Assembly (NCBI GenBank): GCA_016930515.1
Contig: JAFGGO010000105.1
Coordinates: 1-20,330, forward strand
Length of the DNA: 20,330 nt
Direction of reading: 5' to 3'
Origin: Promethearchaeota archaeon
Lineage (GTDB): Archaea > Asgardarchaeota > Lokiarchaeia > Sigyniarchaeales > SOKP01
Position numbers and translations under genes: made by a program. Within the stretch, counting starts at the first letter, position 1, and each line of letters begins with the position of its first letter. Under the pieces are notes generated by a model. It did not search any database. It saw only the letters and a program-made list of their open reading frames with translations, and had not been told where the DNA came from. Below are positions 2,982 through 20,174 of this stretch, in pieces.

Positions 2982-3638
2982 TCATGTAAATATTGAATAA
3001 TAAATTGTTCTTTCGACTTTACGCAAGTGATGGTATAAGGCGCTCTGAGAAATCTCAAAATGGTTGGCGATTTTTTCTGAATCGATTTTGCGAGGTATTT
3101 CAAAATAGCCGTGTTGAATGGCGTAATATACGATTTCTTTTTGACGATCCGTTAATTCTAAAAAAAGATTTGCGTGGTTGGGATGCAAGCGAGTTATGCT
3201 CAGAATTTCAAGGTCTCCACTATAAAAGTTTTCTAAGGATTCGCAGAACGCATCGATATTCTTGCTCTCTGAAATTATGCTTACTAAAAGATAATCACGA
3301 TCGAGTACAATGGGAGGATCGATGATTAAATCGAGCTTATCGAGGAACTTTTTTGTATCGTTAAATAAATTATTTTTAGAAAAGAAAATAAATTCGTTTT
3401 TAGCCTTATTCTCTTCAATGACTTCAATAAAAGACATTCCATATCTATCTCCTTCCAACATTTTTGGGTGCATTTTTTCGTCCTTGAATTTAACTTTCTG
3501 GGAGACATAGATTTGATCGTCGTCGAAACGGTGGATTTGAAATAATTCATATTTTTCAAAAATATTAAAGAATTCGTACCTTAGATCAAATGATATTTTT
3601 ACGGGTACTTTTAGAACGATTTTTTTTAATTTCTTCAT
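2982..3638 (-). CDS. Bacterio-opsin activator-like (HTH_10) transcriptional regulator, copy 2
   Basis: LTDRQKEIVYYAIQHGYFEIPRKIDSEKIANHFEISQSALYHHLRKVE; colinear with 241-888 over its whole length. Confidence 0.88.
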   Translation of the reverse strand: MKKLKKIVLKVPVKISFDLRYEFFNIFEKYELFQIHRFDDDQIYVSQKVKFKDEKMHPKMLEGDRYGMSFIEVIEENKAKNEFIFFSKNNLFNDTKKFLDKLDLIIDPPIVLDRDYLLVSIISESKNIDAFCESLENFYSGDLEILSITRLHPNHANLFLELTDRQKEIVYYAIQHGYFEIPRKIDSEKIANHFEISQSALYHHLRKVERTIYYSIFT

Positions 3639-3806: not shown

Positions 3807-6230
3807 ATGCAAACAAATGAATTAAAAGGATCAGAAGATCCACTATTTAAGGAACCGTATGTCGATATCGATGAATGGCGTGACGAGCCCGTGCGTCATC
3901 GATATGTTCATGGAGGTTTTGAAGATACCGAATGTCGATTCTCTATTTATTTTCCACCGAAAGAGCAATACGATGGACGCTTTTTTCAATACATCATGGC
4001 GATATCGGGCAACGAGAAGGTAGCACAAGCGCCAGAAAACCCCGATCCCAGCTACGCATTAGGTTTTGTCTTCGAAAGTGGTGCTTATTTTGTGGAATCA
4101 AACCTGGGAAGAAAAGACATGTTTCCTGGTAAGGACCCAACAATCACTGGGTATCGAACGAGTGCAGCAGTAGCGAAATACTCGCGCGTTTTGGCTTCAG
4201 AAATGTATGGACCCCACCGTCCCTTTGGGTATGCCTGGGGAGGTAGTGGGGGAGGATACAAGACAATTAGTTGTATCGAAAGCACGAACGGTGTTTGGGA
4301 TGGCGTGGTTCCATTTATACACGCATCACCGATGGCAATGATCAATGTTTTCTCAGTACAAGCCCACGCCATGCGGATTCTGAAAGATAAAATACCCTCT
4401 ATTATCGATGCAGTTGAGCCTGGTGGTAGTGGCGACATGTATGCTGGCTTAAACGAAGAAGAACGCGAAGCGCTTGCCGAAGTGACTAAGATGGGATTTC
4501 CCCCAAGAGCTTGGTTCAATTACAAGAGGATAGCGTTCGGCTATACGGGAGTATTAACAACCCTGCTTGATATAGTAATTAAATGGGATCCCACATATTT
4601 TAAGGATTTTTGGACGATGCCAGGTTATCTAGGTGCAAACCCTCCCGATTCACTCTTAAAAGCCCGAATCCAACACGAAACAACCATTGTCAAGCTGATT
4701 ATGCCCGAAGACATAAGGCAAATGGGGCAATCAATATCTATATCGGCCGGACAAGCGGGAAATGTAAAAGTCCCAGCTGGTCTTGTATTAGAAAGTGTTC
4801 CTGAGGGTGACATACAGGGGTCTTCAATATTCATACAAAGTGGCGAAGCAAAAGGTCGCGTGGCTTATGCAATTGTAGCGCTTGGTAACACGGTAATGCT
4901 TGCTTACGGTGAGGATAATTATCCCTATCTGGCAAATATCAAGGTAGGCGACAAGATAAAGCTCGATAACTCCAATTATCTTGCTGCTCAAACCTATCAT
5001 CGCCACCAGGTTCCGGGTCCTGAATATAAGGTTTGGGATCAGTTTCGAGACGCTGATGGTAACCCATTGTATCCACAAAGACCAGAAATCCTAGGTCCGC
5101 GCCACGCTGAGATGGGATCAGGGTCAGTCCAATCTGGTAAATTTGAGGGCAAGATGATCGCGGTGAATATGTTGATGGATGAAGCTGCTTATCCATGGCA
5201 ACCCGACTGGTATCGTTCGAGAGTGAAAGAACACTTAGGAGATCGAATCGATGACAATTATCGGCTCTGGTACTTTGACAACGCGATGCACACTCCGCCA
5301 ACAATAACGCCATTAGACGAACCCCCGATGATAACCACTCGGATCATAAACTATGGAGGCGTATTACAGCAAGCATTGCGCGATGTGAGCGCTTGGGCCG
5401 AGAAAGGCATAGCGCCCCCTCCAAGCACAGTATATAAGGTGGTGGATGGTCAAGTAGAGGTGCCGCCGACTGCTGCGGAACGCAAGGGGATCCAACCAGT
5501 CATTAATTTATCTGTAAATGGAGGTGTGCGTGCAGATGTCAATGTTGGTGAAAGGGTTGAGTTTTCAGGGGTTATAGAAATACCCCCTGATACCGGTTCA
5601 ATAGTTAATTTAGAATGGGATTTTGAAGGTACAGGCGATTTCCCCATACGAGAACCGCTCAAAGACGCTAAAAATACTCGGATAGAGGCAAAGACTACTT
5701 ATAGCTTCTCCAAGCCTGGATCATATTTTCCCGCGCTAAGAGCAAGCTCAAACAGGTCAGGTGACCCTCAAACACCCTATGCCAAAGTCCAGAACATTGG
5801 ACGAGTGAGAGTGGTGGTTACTTCTAAGGATGAGGGTAAAACTAAAGAAAAAAGTAAACCAAAGGGTAAAACTAAAGGTCGAGAATTAGTTATTGAATTG
5901 GATAAGAAACCTGTCGATTTTCAAAAATTTATGGACAACTTTGCCGAAGCTGTTACGCAAAAAAAAACCGTAGTGCAAGGAAATGAAATATCAAATGTTG
6001 AAGTTGAACCAAGAAGCAGTTGTTCTTTGAAATTCCAACTCACGCCCTTCATTGGTGATGCTTTTTACACGATAATTTTTGAAGATACTCGAACCGGCAT
6101 TGCGGTGTTCTTAGAAGTGGAAATTGCGGCTACGGGTGCCTATAAAATGTTTCAAAAAGCCATAAAAAAAGGCGTTTCAAAAAAAGTTATTGAAAACACG
6201 ATTGAGATACTAAACAAAATATTAGAATAA
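3807..6230 (+). CDS. Tannase-like alpha/beta-hydrolase-fold protein with PKD domain and an extra C-terminal domain
   Basis: WGGSGGG nucleophile elbow; LWYFDNAMH candidate catalytic His; EWDFEGTGDF...YSFSKPGSY PKD signature; Lys-rich linker followed by a ~115-aa tail. Confidence 0.7.
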   Translation: MQTNELKGSEDPLFKEPYVDIDEWRDEPVRHRYVHGGFEDTECRFSIYFPPKEQYDGRFFQYIMAISGNEKVAQAPENPDPSYALGFVFESGAYFVESNLGRKDMFPGKDPTITGYRTSAAVAKYSRVLASEMYGPHRPFGYAWGGSGGGYKTISCIESTNGVWDGVVPFIHASPMAMINVFSVQAHAMRILKDKIPSIIDAVEPGGSGDMYAGLNEEEREALAEVTKMGFPPRAWFNYKRIAFGYTGVLTTLLDIVIKWDPTYFKDFWTMPGYLGANPPDSLLKARIQHETTIVKLIMPEDIRQMGQSISISAGQAGNVKVPAGLVLESVPEGDIQGSSIFIQSGEAKGRVAYAIVALGNTVMLAYGEDNYPYLANIKVGDKIKLDNSNYLAAQTYHRHQVPGPEYKVWDQFRDADGNPLYPQRPEILGPRHAEMGSGSVQSGKFEGKMIAVNMLMDEAAYPWQPDWYRSRVKEHLGDRIDDNYRLWYFDNAMHTPPTITPLDEPPMITTRIINYGGVLQQALRDVSAWAEKGIAPPPSTVYKVVDGQVEVPPTAAERKGIQPVINLSVNGGVRADVNVGERVEFSGVIEIPPDTGSIVNLEWDFEGTGDFPIREPLKDAKNTRIEAKTTYSFSKPGSYFPALRASSNRSGDPQTPYAKVQNIGRVRVVVTSKDEGKTKEKSKPKGKTKGRELVIELDKKPVDFQKFMDNFAEAVTQKKTVVQGNEISNVEVEPRSSCSLKFQLTPFIGDAFYTIIFEDTRTGIAVFLEVEIAATGAYKMFQKAIKKGVSKKVIENTIEILNKILE
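5833..5877 (+). repeat. 15-bp direct repeat AGGGTAAAACTAAAG (x2, period 30) in the linker-coding region
   Basis: Exact copies at 5833-5847 and 5863-5877, encoding GKTK twice. Confidence 0.8.
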
Positions 6231-12009: not shown

Positions 12010-14358
12010 ATGAGCAAGCAAGGAACTAGCATCAAAATAGATGAATATAAAGGACCGTTAGGTTTAATTAAAGGATTCGAATTTAGTGCTGGAAAAGTCT
12101 CAATGGGTGACGAAACAGAATGGGAACCAATGGGTCCCCATCCAAAGCCGCATATTCCGACATTAAGAAATTGGTTCTTTAAATTGATGGAAAGATACAA
12201 GCCTTTTTACATGCCAATCTGTGATATGTGTTGTTTATGTACTTATGGAAAATGTAATCTTTCAAAAGGGCGAACGGGCGCTTGTGGAATCAATATGGAA
12301 ACGCAACAAGCGAGAATTGTGGAAATAGCCTGTTGCATTGGAGCATCCTGTCACAGCGCTCATGGAGATCATCTTTTACATTGGTTAAAAGAAAAATATG
12401 GTAATGTTGCCATTAATTTTGGACATAATATTGCAGTTGAAATGCCATGTACAAGACTGATTGTTGGTATGAAACCCGAATGTTTGGAGGATTTGGAAAC
12501 CGCAATGGAATGGGTTCATTATACGATCACTCATTTATTAGCCGCGGGACACACGGGACAAGAATCTAACCATTTAGATTACGAATCTAAAGCTTTCTTA
12601 GCGGGTTTAGCTGATGCTGTAGGTATGGAGATATCTGATGCCGTACAAATTGCTGCCTATGGATTTCCAATGGGCGAACCCGATGTACCAATCATTGAGT
12701 TGGGAATGGGAACAATGGATTTTGAAAATAAGGCCTCAATTCTAATGATCGGACATAATGTCGCACCAGGAATTGAATTAGTAGATTACATGAGAGAAAA
12801 GGGATTAGAAGACAAGGTTGATGTGGGTGCAATTTGTTGTACAGCAATTGATCTAACCAGGTATTTTGATGGCGCTAAAGTTGTTGGTTCTCTCTCTCGA
12901 CAGATGTTTTATATCCGATCAGGACTTGCAGATGTTGTCATGGTGGATGAGCAATGCGTGAACCTCCGAAGTTATGAACAAGCAAAATTGGTAAACGCAC
13001 CATTTATTGCTACTAATGAAAAAAATATGGGTGGTTTACCCAACAGGACTGACGATCCTGCCGAGGAAATCATAGCTGATCTCGTGAGTGGAAAAAACGA
13101 CGGTGTTTTAATTTTAGATCCCATTAAAGCGGGTAAAGTAGCTGTTGAAACCGCAATAAAAGTAAAACCCATAAGGGCTGGAAAAAGTGGAGTTCCTGAT
13201 GAGAAAGGATGCATCGAAATGGCGATGAAATGCAATGGATGCGGAAATTGTCAAAGAAATTGTCCTAACGATCTGCCCATTGTTGAAGGTGTGAAACAAG
13301 CAAAGGAAGGGAACTTTAAAATTTTAGAGGAAGTTTTTGACTCTTGCCTGGATTGTGGACGATGCGAAACTGATTGCAAGAAAGAAGTTTCACCGTTAAC
13401 ATTAATAATGTTTGCTGCGCGAAACAAGATACGAAACGAAAAGTTTAACATGAGAGCTGGTCGAGGACCCATTCAAGATACTGAAATTCGAAATGTTGGT
13501 GCTCCGATTGTTTTAGGCGAAATTCCAGGAATTGTTGCGATAATCGGATGCGCAAATTACGCTAAAGAAATTCAAGAGCTTTACATGATGGCCGAAGAGT
13601 TTTTAACGAGGAATTACATCGTCGTAGTGTCTGGTTGTGGAGCCATGGATATCGGTCTTGTTAAGGACGATGAAGGAAAAACCCTTTACGACAGATTTCC
13701 AGGTACATTCGACAGGGGGGGTCTAGTAAATGTCGGAAGTTGCGTTAGCAACCCACACATCAACGGGGCTGCAATTAAAGTTGCCAATATTTTCGCAAGA
13801 CGCCCCTTACGAGGAAATTATGAGGAAATTGCAGATTACATCCTCAATCGTGTAGGTGCCTGCGGTGTTGCGTGGGGCGCAATGAGTCAAAAAGCAGCTA
13901 GTATCGCAAGTAGTTGCAACGGAATGGGCATTCCTGCTATATGTGGACCTCATTCGGCTGAATACAGAAGGATGTATCTTGGTAGATCTTACGATGAGGA
14001 AACATGGAAGGTTTATAATGCACGAGATGGAACGGCTAATCATTCAATAGGTCCAGGTCCAGAACATCTTTTAACAACGGCCGAATCCATAGAACAAGCC
14101 ATTTGTTTGACGGCAAAATTATGCTTAAGACCCGCAGATAACTCTAAAGGAAGAATGATTAAACTATCCCATTGGATCGATCTTGAACGCAAATATAAAG
14201 GCGTAGATTTTCCAAACGATTTAGAAAAATTCATCCGAGTCGAAGCTGACATTCCTATAGCAATGAAAGACGGTATAATGACATACTTGAAAGAAAAAGG
14301 TTGGAAACCAAAAGAACTTGTTGATCCTACCTTAATTGAACGTTTATGCCATAAATGA
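12010..14358 (+). CDS. cdhA: CO dehydrogenase/acetyl-CoA synthase complex subunit alpha (archaeal type)
   Basis: WEPMGP.PKP, CDMCCLCTYGKC..GACG, C-cluster ligands GHN, CCT, DEQC, GC, SGC, GSC, two extra ferredoxin motifs (CNGCGNCQRNCP, CLDCGRCETDC), and C-terminal DPT. Confidence 0.96.
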   Translation: MSKQGTSIKIDEYKGPLGLIKGFEFSAGKVSMGDETEWEPMGPHPKPHIPTLRNWFFKLMERYKPFYMPICDMCCLCTYGKCNLSKGRTGACGINMETQQARIVEIACCIGASCHSAHGDHLLHWLKEKYGNVAINFGHNIAVEMPCTRLIVGMKPECLEDLETAMEWVHYTITHLLAAGHTGQESNHLDYESKAFLAGLADAVGMEISDAVQIAAYGFPMGEPDVPIIELGMGTMDFENKASILMIGHNVAPGIELVDYMREKGLEDKVDVGAICCTAIDLTRYFDGAKVVGSLSRQMFYIRSGLADVVMVDEQCVNLRSYEQAKLVNAPFIATNEKNMGGLPNRTDDPAEEIIADLVSGKNDGVLILDPIKAGKVAVETAIKVKPIRAGKSGVPDEKGCIEMAMKCNGCGNCQRNCPNDLPIVEGVKQAKEGNFKILEEVFDSCLDCGRCETDCKKEVSPLTLIMFAARNKIRNEKFNMRAGRGPIQDTEIRNVGAPIVLGEIPGIVAIIGCANYAKEIQELYMMAEEFLTRNYIVVVSGCGAMDIGLVKDDEGKTLYDRFPGTFDRGGLVNVGSCVSNPHINGAAIKVANIFARRPLRGNYEEIADYILNRVGACGVAWGAMSQKAASIASSCNGMGIPAICGPHSAEYRRMYLGRSYDEETWKVYNARDGTANHSIGPGPEHLLTTAESIEQAICLTAKLCLRPADNSKGRMIKLSHWIDLERKYKGVDFPNDLEKFIRVEADIPIAMKDGIMTYLKEKGWKPKELVDPTLIERLCHK

Positions 14359-18962: not shown

Positions 18963-20174
18963 ATGGATGAATTGAGAAATTTCTTTGCTTACGAAATTGA
19001 AGAAAATGGGGTACGCAAGGAATTATTTTTCTCAGAAAAAGACCTCGAACAATATCTCGATCCAGAGAAGGTTTTAATTTTAATAAGGGAAGATTTAAGA
19101 AGAATTTTCGTTTGGAAAGGAGCAAAGTCTTCGGTTCAAAATCGATTCATTAGTTCAAATGTCGCAACGGAGCTCCAGCAAGAACTCGCGAAAGATTCTC
19201 GTTATCAAGTGTGTAAAATCGTTTCGGTGGATCAGGGTGACGAGGTTCAAGAATTTCTTAAAGCATTTGCTTTAAAATCAATGGATGTGAAAGAACGATT
19301 AGCAGATATGAGATATGTTCGGAACAGTGAACGGTCAATATATGAAAAAGAAAAGACATATCCTGAAGAAAAGGAATTTAGAATCAGTGAACATATCGTG
19401 CTAAAATTCATAAAAGGACAAACCGTTATCTTCATAAACGACGAACCGTTTCATCAATGCAAATATTTACTCTTAAATCTCACTCAAAAGGATTTTATCG
19501 AATTTGATGATGTTGATTCCATTGATGAAGCCTTCAAGATCTATAACAAGATGGAAAAAAAACACGAACATGACCACGATCTCATCGATCCAGAGTCCGA
19601 ATTTATGGGTCATTGTTCTAACCTCCAAGCTTGGTACGAACACGACTATGATCTCAGAATTCTTCATAGTAGCCTTTCAATTCCCTTATTGAAGAAAATT
19701 GCTTTTTTAGGGGATAAAAAAGCAATCATGCGACTAAAAGAAAGCATCGCAACTCGGATAGCGTCGAGAAATTTTAATACTATCGTTTTTTACCTCAACG
19801 AAAAGTATCTGAAACTATTTTCGAATGAGGAATTGGAAGCGATGTTTGAAGACTGGCTTAATAAAAAGGTAGATTTCGCCTTTATGGAGAAAAGAAGGTT
19901 GTGGTATCCCCTTCTTCAAGAATTAATCGAACGGGGAATTTTAAAGGCTCAGAAAATCGTCAAAAACGAAATCATAAAATATCTCAAAGAAGACAATCTT
20001 GAAGCTTATAGATATTTACTTAACACTGATTTTCTCAAGCTTCTTAAACTTGAAGTCCTGGAAGAACTCTATGAAATTGTTCCAAAGAAAGACTTGGTTG
20101 CGATGCGAAGGGTTGAATCCATTATTCTCAAAAAAACACTCAAAAAAAGAAGAGAATCACAATCTATTACATAA
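18963..20174 (+). CDS. Gelsolin-like domain fused to a Lokiarchaeia-type 'GHCSNLQxW' domain
   Basis: N-terminal LDPEKVLILIREDLRRIFVWKGAKSS...SVDQGDEVQEFLKAF matches the gelsolin repeat pattern. It is followed by EFRISEHIVLK...QCKYLLLN...SIDEA...EFMGHCSNLQAWYEHDYD.RILHS.L..PLLKK. Confidence 0.72.
   Translation: MDELRNFFAYEIEENGVRKELFFSEKDLEQYLDPEKVLILIREDLRRIFVWKGAKSSVQNRFISSNVATELQQELAKDSRYQVCKIVSVDQGDEVQEFLKAFALKSMDVKERLADMRYVRNSERSIYEKEKTYPEEKEFRISEHIVLKFIKGQTVIFINDEPFHQCKYLLLNLTQKDFIEFDDVDSIDEAFKIYNKMEKKHEHDHDLIDPESEFMGHCSNLQAWYEHDYDLRILHSSLSIPLLKKIAFLGDKKAIMRLKESIATRIASRNFNTIVFYLNEKYLKLFSNEELEAMFEDWLNKKVDFAFMEKRRLWYPLLQELIERGILKAQKIVKNEIIKYLKEDNLEAYRYLLNTDFLKLLKLEVLEELYEIVPKKDLVAMRRVESIILKKTLKKRRESQSIT

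Follow-up and report, generated by a model that had tools for sequence, protein, structure and literature searches.

Gene and domain organization of the locus

The window, by which we mean the whole 20,330-nucleotide stretch of DNA that was analyzed, carries close to its end an open reading frame that runs from ATG to stop over 403 codons, beginning 348 bp past the preceding gene and ending 156 bp short of the end of the contig. An earlier note on this DNA had read the frame as a gelsolin-like domain fused to a recurring, uncharacterized domain, and this two-part arrangement was confirmed in the reading frame, in both domains (Table 1) and in the motifs, with IFVWKGAKS at residues 48-56, VDQGDEVQEFLKAF at 89-102, QCKYLLL at 165-171, SIDEA at 186-190, EFMGHCSNLQAW at 213-224 and PLLKK at 241-245.

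Table 1. Coordinates in the window of the fusion gene and of the parts of its product.
Feature	Position	Strand	Description	Basis
Fusion gene, complete	18963..20174	+	403 aa, 48.4 kDa, pI 6.1; stop codon included	ORF list and translation
Gelsolin-homology (GH) domain, aa 1-105	18963..19277	+	ProGel/GelX single-domain type	Pfam PF00626; Foldseek versus 7c2f_B
Linker, aa 106-135	19278..19367	+	Partly conserved, flexible	pLDDT and orthologue alignment
"GHCSNLQAW" module core, aa 136-297	19368..19853	+	~160 aa	Stretch common to 2,270 clusters
Basic helical-repeat tail, aa 298-403	19854..20171	+	Probably a generic ARM/HEAT-like alpha-solenoid	

A search of 5.8 billion proteins returned ~70 full-length orthologues of 399-435 aa with 63-83% identity, which begin at the identical methionine. 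All of these derive from metagenome bins of Lokiarchaeial (Promethearchaeota) origin, two of them belonging to the Loki's Castle LCGC14 metagenome, and those that carry a name are annotated merely as "hypothetical" or "gelsolin-like domain-containing". In an alignment of 31 orthologues the mean pairwise identity was 68% for the GH domain (aa 1-105), 58% for the linker (aa 106-135), 81% for the module core (aa 136-257), the highest value, and 72% for the tail (aa 258-395). Conservation of every part in this alignment shows that the fusion is a genuine gene, held by purifying selection. The full-length AlphaFold2 model, built from a 116-row alignment, had a mean pLDDT of 87 and a pTM of 0.64, versus a pTM of 0.83 for the C-terminal part modelled alone, and the GH domain and the C-terminal part were not confidently packed together.

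Elsewhere in the window, two long genes (3807-6230 and 12010-14358) have a G+C content of 40-46% against ~30-33% around them; they encode an 807-aa protein that matches PKD weakly and a 782-aa protein of the prismane/CO-dehydrogenase family with an inserted 4Fe-4S dicluster. Two paralogous HTH_10 regulators (Pfam) of 230 and 218 aa, encoded on the minus strand at 241-933 and 2982-3638, flank genes for an epimerase and a HAD hydrolase.

The gelsolin-homology head

The Pfam model PF00626 matched residues 32-99 at 26.2 bits (E 7e-6, gathering score 21) when the whole protein was searched, and reached 28.9 bits against the cut-off of 21 when residues 1-135 were searched alone. This is the one GH stretch that Pfam finds in the protein, and 300 further residues follow it. 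The closest PDB sequences were Thor ProGel (7c2f_B, E 1e-4), then Thor 2DGel3 and Loki 2DGel. Consistent with these matches, the model of the domain, with pLDDT values of 72-92 in 10-residue blocks, superposed in a Foldseek search of the PDB on 7c2f_B with a TM by target of 0.85 and an rmsd of 2.0 Å over 95 columns, and the best 50 PDB matches of the full-length model were all gelsolin-family chains, with 7c2f_B first. The gelsolin pattern that had been recognized by eye at residues ~1-125 thus holds both at the level of the Pfam threshold and in the superposition on Thor ProGel, and the Foldseek search that the earlier note had proposed as a check on the N-terminus, where absence of a gelsolin fold was to count against its reading, found that fold in the model.

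Thor ProGel (7C2F chain B), which was solved with actin, is the best match of the fusion's GH domain in both structure and sequence, at 27% identity. It differs, however, in being a GH domain alone (88-94 residues), without the linker motif or any C-terminal domains, and it is a weak actin binder that does not sever filaments; its Kd for rabbit actin is 337 µM (PMC7444086). In a HMMER alignment, Q59 and N60 of the window protein are aligned with a D/E pair of Loki 2DGel (7whg_G), and these two positions are K/K in most of the fusion orthologues, while the genome's own two-domain gelsolin retains SVDEK at the corresponding acidic pair. In gelsolins this D/E pair, with which the long helix opens, forms the type-II calcium site. 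The fusion does not have the acidic pair of that site found in calcium-regulated gelsolins, and because Q59/N60 (mostly K/K) stand in its place, we predict that the GH head is without calcium control. This is a prediction for the window protein, whereas for Thor 1DGelX calcium independence was measured.

The genome from which the window derives encodes a Lokiactin and, besides the fusion, about eight GH proteins. Its two-domain gelsolin (G000:C161:27461-28450; L029:1447-2436, plus strand) is a 329-aa protein with an LKDV motif between the GH domains, and bears a C-terminal zinc-ribbon-like CPNCG...CGECG after an acidic, S-rich linker, an addition for which no mention was found in the 2DGel literature consulted for comparison.

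The linker

The first 20 residues of the linker (SMDVKERLADMRYVRNSE) form a near-invariant motif that is common to classical Loki GelX; the same post-GH motif follows the GH domains of P0094, P0111 and P0119. In the orthologue alignment the near-invariant positions are M107, E108, V109, E111, L113, D115, Y118, R120 and N121. The remainder of the linker is variable, and some fusion orthologues have a 23-aa insertion near residue 130. These insertion variants, together with pLDDT values below 50 for residues 111-119, argue for a flexible connection between the GH domain and the module. Within the subgroup of fusions of 423-428 aa the 23-residue insertion is itself conserved (KTKVFS..H.RFLQEF...); its carriers include loci L081, L082 and L083 (genus g12) as well as P0036, P0046, P0048, P0064 and others.

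The GHCSNLQAW module

An exhaustive phmmer search with residues 130-403 against 1.84 billion representatives retrieved 2,270 clusters at E<=1e-3, 1,923 of them at E<=1e-10, with E-values to members of the family of ~1e-33 to 1e-60. The stretch that these clusters have in common corresponds to positions 8-168 of the query, i.e., to residues ~137-297, and is present up to six times in some of the proteins. As such, the GHCSNLQ domain that had been delimited from motifs at residues ~137-295 is a real recurring unit with a core at almost those bounds. Between the fusion and other module proteins the core is 33-58% identical.

In 112 divergent segments from paralogues, no substitution is seen at C166, D188, S219, N220, Y229, L243 or R265, and H217 (98%), C218 (96%) and H235 (94%, replaced only by D or E) are nearly invariant; E213, W224 and E226 are also near-invariant in the family. 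The window protein retains C166, D188, H217, C218, S219, N220, Y229 and R265, and the fusion orthologues depart from the family-wide residues at W215 (M or I), F240 (I) and E261 (S). Polar residues fixed in such number may point to a metal site, a catalytic site or a highly specific buried network.

When residues 130-403 were modelled alone with AlphaFold2 from 128 aligned relatives, the pLDDT was 91.3. The model has a four-strand beta-meander at residues 137-163, a helical part that includes the GHCSNLQAW helix, and helical hairpins that run to the C-terminus. The tail, which has a pI of 9.4, prolongs a helical stack that starts inside the module at about residue 236, and for residues 258-403 the VIA-align wide and second-look search listed only generic helical repeats. 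For the second domain, on which the earlier note had likewise called for a fold search, Foldseek found no match to the C-terminal model in the PDB at E<=1e-3, and searches of the ESM Atlas by shape and by feature brought up nothing beyond clusters of the module's own family, at TM 0.63-0.72. The Foldseek search was made with the model of residues 130-403 as a whole, and we do not claim a new fold for residues 134-257. A profile search of the module against PDB sequences gave noise only, and comparison of the C-terminal part with Pfam, NCBIfam and PADLOC gave no match. The statement in the note that the second domain has no assigned function accords with this, in that no Pfam or NCBIfam model names the module.

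Module partners and taxonomic range

A census of partner domains, likewise suggested in the note, showed that leucine-rich repeats (LRR), which the note had described as frequent, predominate: 27 of 95 representative module proteins carry LRR, with fewer bearing TPR (seven) or Ras/Roc (three) domains. The window's genome has about 19 copies of the module; among the 17 paralogues that were scanned, 11 have LRR, one TPR, one Ras/Roc, and four no other recognizable domain. The unnamed module proteins, such as the stand-alone P0077, the LRR-bearing P0087 and P0091 and the Ras/Roc-bearing P0103, have the core, the invariant residues and the predicted shape in common with the fusion. They lack a GH domain, however, and the module is N-terminal in most of them (in some proteins it is C-terminal), whereas in the window protein it lies C-terminal to the GH domain.

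The taxonomic range of the module is narrow. Strong matches were found in the window's own family, f1, by single-protein search and in family f4, at 2-6 copies, by profile search, and family f2 gave one weak partial match with the profile. The profile found nothing in the three closed genomes of the sister family f3, two of which are those of Promethearchaeum syntrophicum MK-D1 and Candidatus Harpocratesius repetitus, nor in five genomes from three other families of the same class, nor in 17 genomes from 14 families of other Asgard classes. The description of the module as Asgard-specific is therefore too broad, as it was found only in f1 and f4 of one order, apart from the weak partial match in f2, and not in these 25 other genomes. 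Two matches lie outside this range: an f3 bin of 1,150 contigs (G139) has four module copies, against the closed genomes of f3 without the module, and an f16 genome from outside the order (G077) gave a match to the whole protein at E 2e-35. Both could be the result of bin contamination or gene transfer.

Distribution and genomic context of the fusion

A survey of 400 Asgard species genomes detected the full-length fusion in no family except that of the window. There it is present in 22 of the 134 other species, representing five genera, and is missing from many genomes that are rated 100% complete. No neighbouring gene was common within 6 kb to the 16 fusion loci compared across the five genera; as a control, the genes next to Lokiactin, up to 1.5 kb away, are shared among these genera. 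Given its presence in 22 of 134 species and its lack of conserved neighbours, the fusion has the character of an accessory gene, outside the core cytoskeleton. A tree of the 16 fusion orthologues labelled by genus was star-like, with starred branches that force at most one change per genus, and does not separate transfer from loss as the source of the patchy distribution. The ORFs upstream of the gene in the window encode methyltransferase-like and flavodoxin/4Fe-4S-like proteins and the further genes are metabolic; none of these upstream genes recurs at the other fusion loci, and the gene context thus gives no hint of function.

Origin of the fusion

The two halves of the protein have separate relatives. 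GelX (P0094) aligns with the window protein over residues 6-135 and no further, at 61% identity; its own orthologues, matching over the full length, occur in MK-D1, Harpocratesius and a third closed genome. Similarly, GelX-type proteins of 300-378 aa are 57-65% identical to it over residues 7-124/146 and have the same post-GH motif. Beyond that motif, the Loki GelX-type proteins have first a stretch rich in S/T/P, then a small conserved domain and finally a charged tail, an architecture that fits the published description of GelX (preprint 10.1101/2025.11.30.690169). In a tree, the GH domains of 14 fusions formed a single clade (ultrafast bootstrap 98, SH-aLRT 100) that was placed among the GH domains of the 300-378-aa GelX-type proteins. 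The nearest relatives of the C-terminal part, on the other hand, are proteins of ~280 aa that are 50-63% identical over residues 131-398. One of them, P0077, is the product of a complete stand-alone gene of 285 aa (52% identical over residues 131-398); an Alba gene lies upstream of it, and neither a gelsolin nor any other actin-related gene is nearby.

Because the match to GelX ends at about residue 135 and the tail matches the ~280-aa proteins, the fusion corresponds, by its sequence relationships, to residues 1-~135 of a GelX followed by an entire module protein of the free-standing kind. The fusion GH domains constitute one well-supported clade, which is most simply read as a single origin. 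Within the window's genome, no GH domain comes closer to that of classical GelX than the one in the fusion (61%), and no canonical GelX turned up in this assembly, which is 94% complete.

Comparison with known gelsolin systems

The nearest described systems are single-GH proteins with a non-gelsolin extension, termed X. Thor 1DGelX binds rabbit actin with a Kd of 7.7 µM, and its severing of filaments needs no calcium (Akil et al. 2020, PMC7444086); bare ProGel does not sever, and the authors credited this activity to X, which they proposed as a filament side-binding site (PMC7444086). Architectures like that of 1DGelX, with X predicted to be coiled-coil, have been stated for Lokiarchaeota (PMC7444086), with three 1DGelX counted in Loki GC14_75 and two in MK-D1 (PMC9433394). 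Lokiarchaeal GelX has been described as having "one GH domain and two disordered domains" (Radler et al. 2025, preprint 10.1101/2025.11.30.690169), and in L. ossiferum five GH proteins co-precipitate with Lokiactin (preprint 10.1101/2025.11.30.690169).

The window protein resembles Thor 1DGelX and L. ossiferum B35_GelX in consisting of one GH domain with a non-gelsolin extension, and its GH domain and post-GH motif group with the Lokiarchaeal GelX-type proteins. It belongs to the 1DGelX/GelX class on both counts, i.e., a single GH domain with an extension, and a GH domain and linker related to those of Loki GelX sequences. The extension itself is different: the published X is disordered or coiled-coil, whereas that of the window protein is a folded 270-aa module plus solenoid (pLDDT 91), which is not homologous to the X of the Loki GelX compared (P0094), having no similarity to it beyond residue ~135, and is set apart from the Thor X by description. 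The note offered the fusion as a candidate for undescribed biology and accepted an already catalogued architecture as a refutation; this objection holds by half. In its coarse form the architecture is already catalogued as 1DGelX/GelX (PMC7444086, PMC9433394); the combination with a folded, family-expanded X is new, and no description of the motif and GH-module architecture was found in the literature searched.

A looser likeness is to two eukaryotic proteins. Flightless-I combines LRR with gelsolin repeats, and villin combines gelsolin repeats with a headpiece. The logic is the same, in that gelsolin-fold actin binders gain a function through an added non-gelsolin domain, and the family of the window module usually carries LRR. 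There is, however, no homology outside the GH fold, and the window protein has a single GH domain without LRR or headpiece. No eukaryotic counterpart of the added domain was found.

Proposed function and alternatives

The most likely reading, to which we give about even weight, is that the head, being derived from GelX, would bind Lokiactin with no need of calcium and that the tethered module-plus-solenoid would link actin to the partner or activity of the module family; the link to actin is drawn from homology. In this scheme the head, comprising the GH domain and the post-GH motif, would have been copied from the order-wide Lokiarchaeal GelX, and the disordered X of GelX would have been swapped for a complete ~280-aa free-standing protein consisting of the module and its helical-repeat tail. 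The head would dock on Lokiactin free of calcium control, and the flexible linker of 25-50 residues would let the folded module-plus-solenoid serve as the working end. In view of the fact that the module is constant in the paralogues and their LRR, TPR and GTPase domains are variable, we speculate that LRR, TPR and Ras/Roc are interchangeable targeting parts of the module proteins and that the GH head is the targeting part here, which would bring the common partner or activity of the module to actin filaments or monomers. The direction could also be the opposite, with the GH head recruiting actin to the docking place of the module. An adaptor role would be the default reading, based on the repeat-type partners and the solenoid tail. 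The dense invariant polar residues of the module (C, D, H, C, S, N, Y, H and R), however, fit a passive docking surface no better, and perhaps less well, than a site for catalysis or metal binding.

It is unlikely, although the extension of Thor 1DGelX is credited with severing that ProGel lacks (PMC7444086), that the tail is instead a second actin-binding site on the filament side, with which the protein could sever or cap filaments by itself and be in effect a GelX with a different side-binding domain. The retention of the GelX linker motif and the basic character of the tail, as opposed to the acidic character of actin, fit this idea. The module is present, however, in > 2,000 clusters, most of them LRR or TPR proteins without a GH domain, which makes a general actin-binding role for it unlikely, and the stand-alone P0077 has no actin-related neighbour.

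Ranking after this, with only a minor share of the probability, is the possibility that the module is a catalytic or metal-binding effector of Cys/His/Asp type, and that the fusion modifies actin or an actin-bound target. The complete conservation of C166, D188, S219, N220, Y229 and R265 in the 112 segments, with H217, C218 and H235 at 94-98%, favours it, as does the core being the most constrained part of the orthologues (81%). A constant domain with interchangeable targeting repeats is, moreover, the layout of many targeted enzymes, for example the LRR-NEL ligases and the F-box proteins. Against it, sequence and profile searches of Pfam, NCBIfam, PADLOC and the PDB showed no similarity to an enzyme family. 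We consider it rather improbable that, more generally, the module is an unrecognized catalytic or metal effector aimed by LRR, TPR, small-GTPase or gelsolin domains, with the fusion as an actin-directed enzyme; if true, this would be a form of cytoskeleton regulation without a described archaeal counterpart.

Slightly less probable still, we think, is that actin binding has been lost from the GH domain, which would leave it as a folded N-terminal unit of a generic kind. The modest Pfam score of 26.2 bits and the weak binding of ProGel to rabbit actin (PMC7444086) point in this direction, but the GH domain and post-GH motif are 54-83% identical across the orthologues and ~60% identical to GelX, and this conservation argues for a retained GelX-like function. 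Least probable, and in our view very doubtful, is that the module is the signalling head, mounted on variable recognition domains, of a variable sensor or immune-like family, with the GH domain as an integrated bait that would sense factors directed at gelsolin or actin and not itself a cytoskeletal regulator: the large lineage-restricted expansion (~19 copies per genome), the occurrence of the fusion in 22 of 134 species of the family, the absence of a common neighbour within 6 kb at 16 loci, unlike at Lokiactin loci, and the usual LRR and TPR partners would agree with it, but there is no PADLOC match, neither an NTPase nor a known effector domain is present, and the orthologues, at 63-83% identity, show good conservation and not fast diversification.

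[quoted passage not shown] The value of the fusion is limited by the presence of the module in few families, by the occurrence of the fusion in about one-sixth of the species of a single family, and by the cultured strain MK-D1 having neither module nor fusion, so that heterologous proteins are needed for tests. Within these bounds, the fusion can serve as a "Rosetta stone", as it sets the commonest head domain of Lokiarchaeal LRR proteins on a domain of actin-binding type, and makes possible a concrete experiment on the action of the module at actin and on its binding partner.

Other C-terminal domains on GelX-type proteins

Additional proteins with a GelX-type head were encountered during the analysis. 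A 316-aa ORF in the window's genome (G000:C160, locus L034, minus strand) has a single GH domain and the GelX-type linker motif, followed by a different, beta-rich C-terminal domain of ~165 aa. P0111 and P0115, GelX-type proteins of 369-378 aa from other Lokiarchaeial genomes, have a C-terminal helix-extension-helix motif of HeH/LEM or Rho_N (SAP-like) type that scores 27.6 bits, just below the Pfam threshold of 28.9. A motif of the HeH/LEM type on a GelX-type actin regulator would hint at a nucleic-acid or lamina-type tether.
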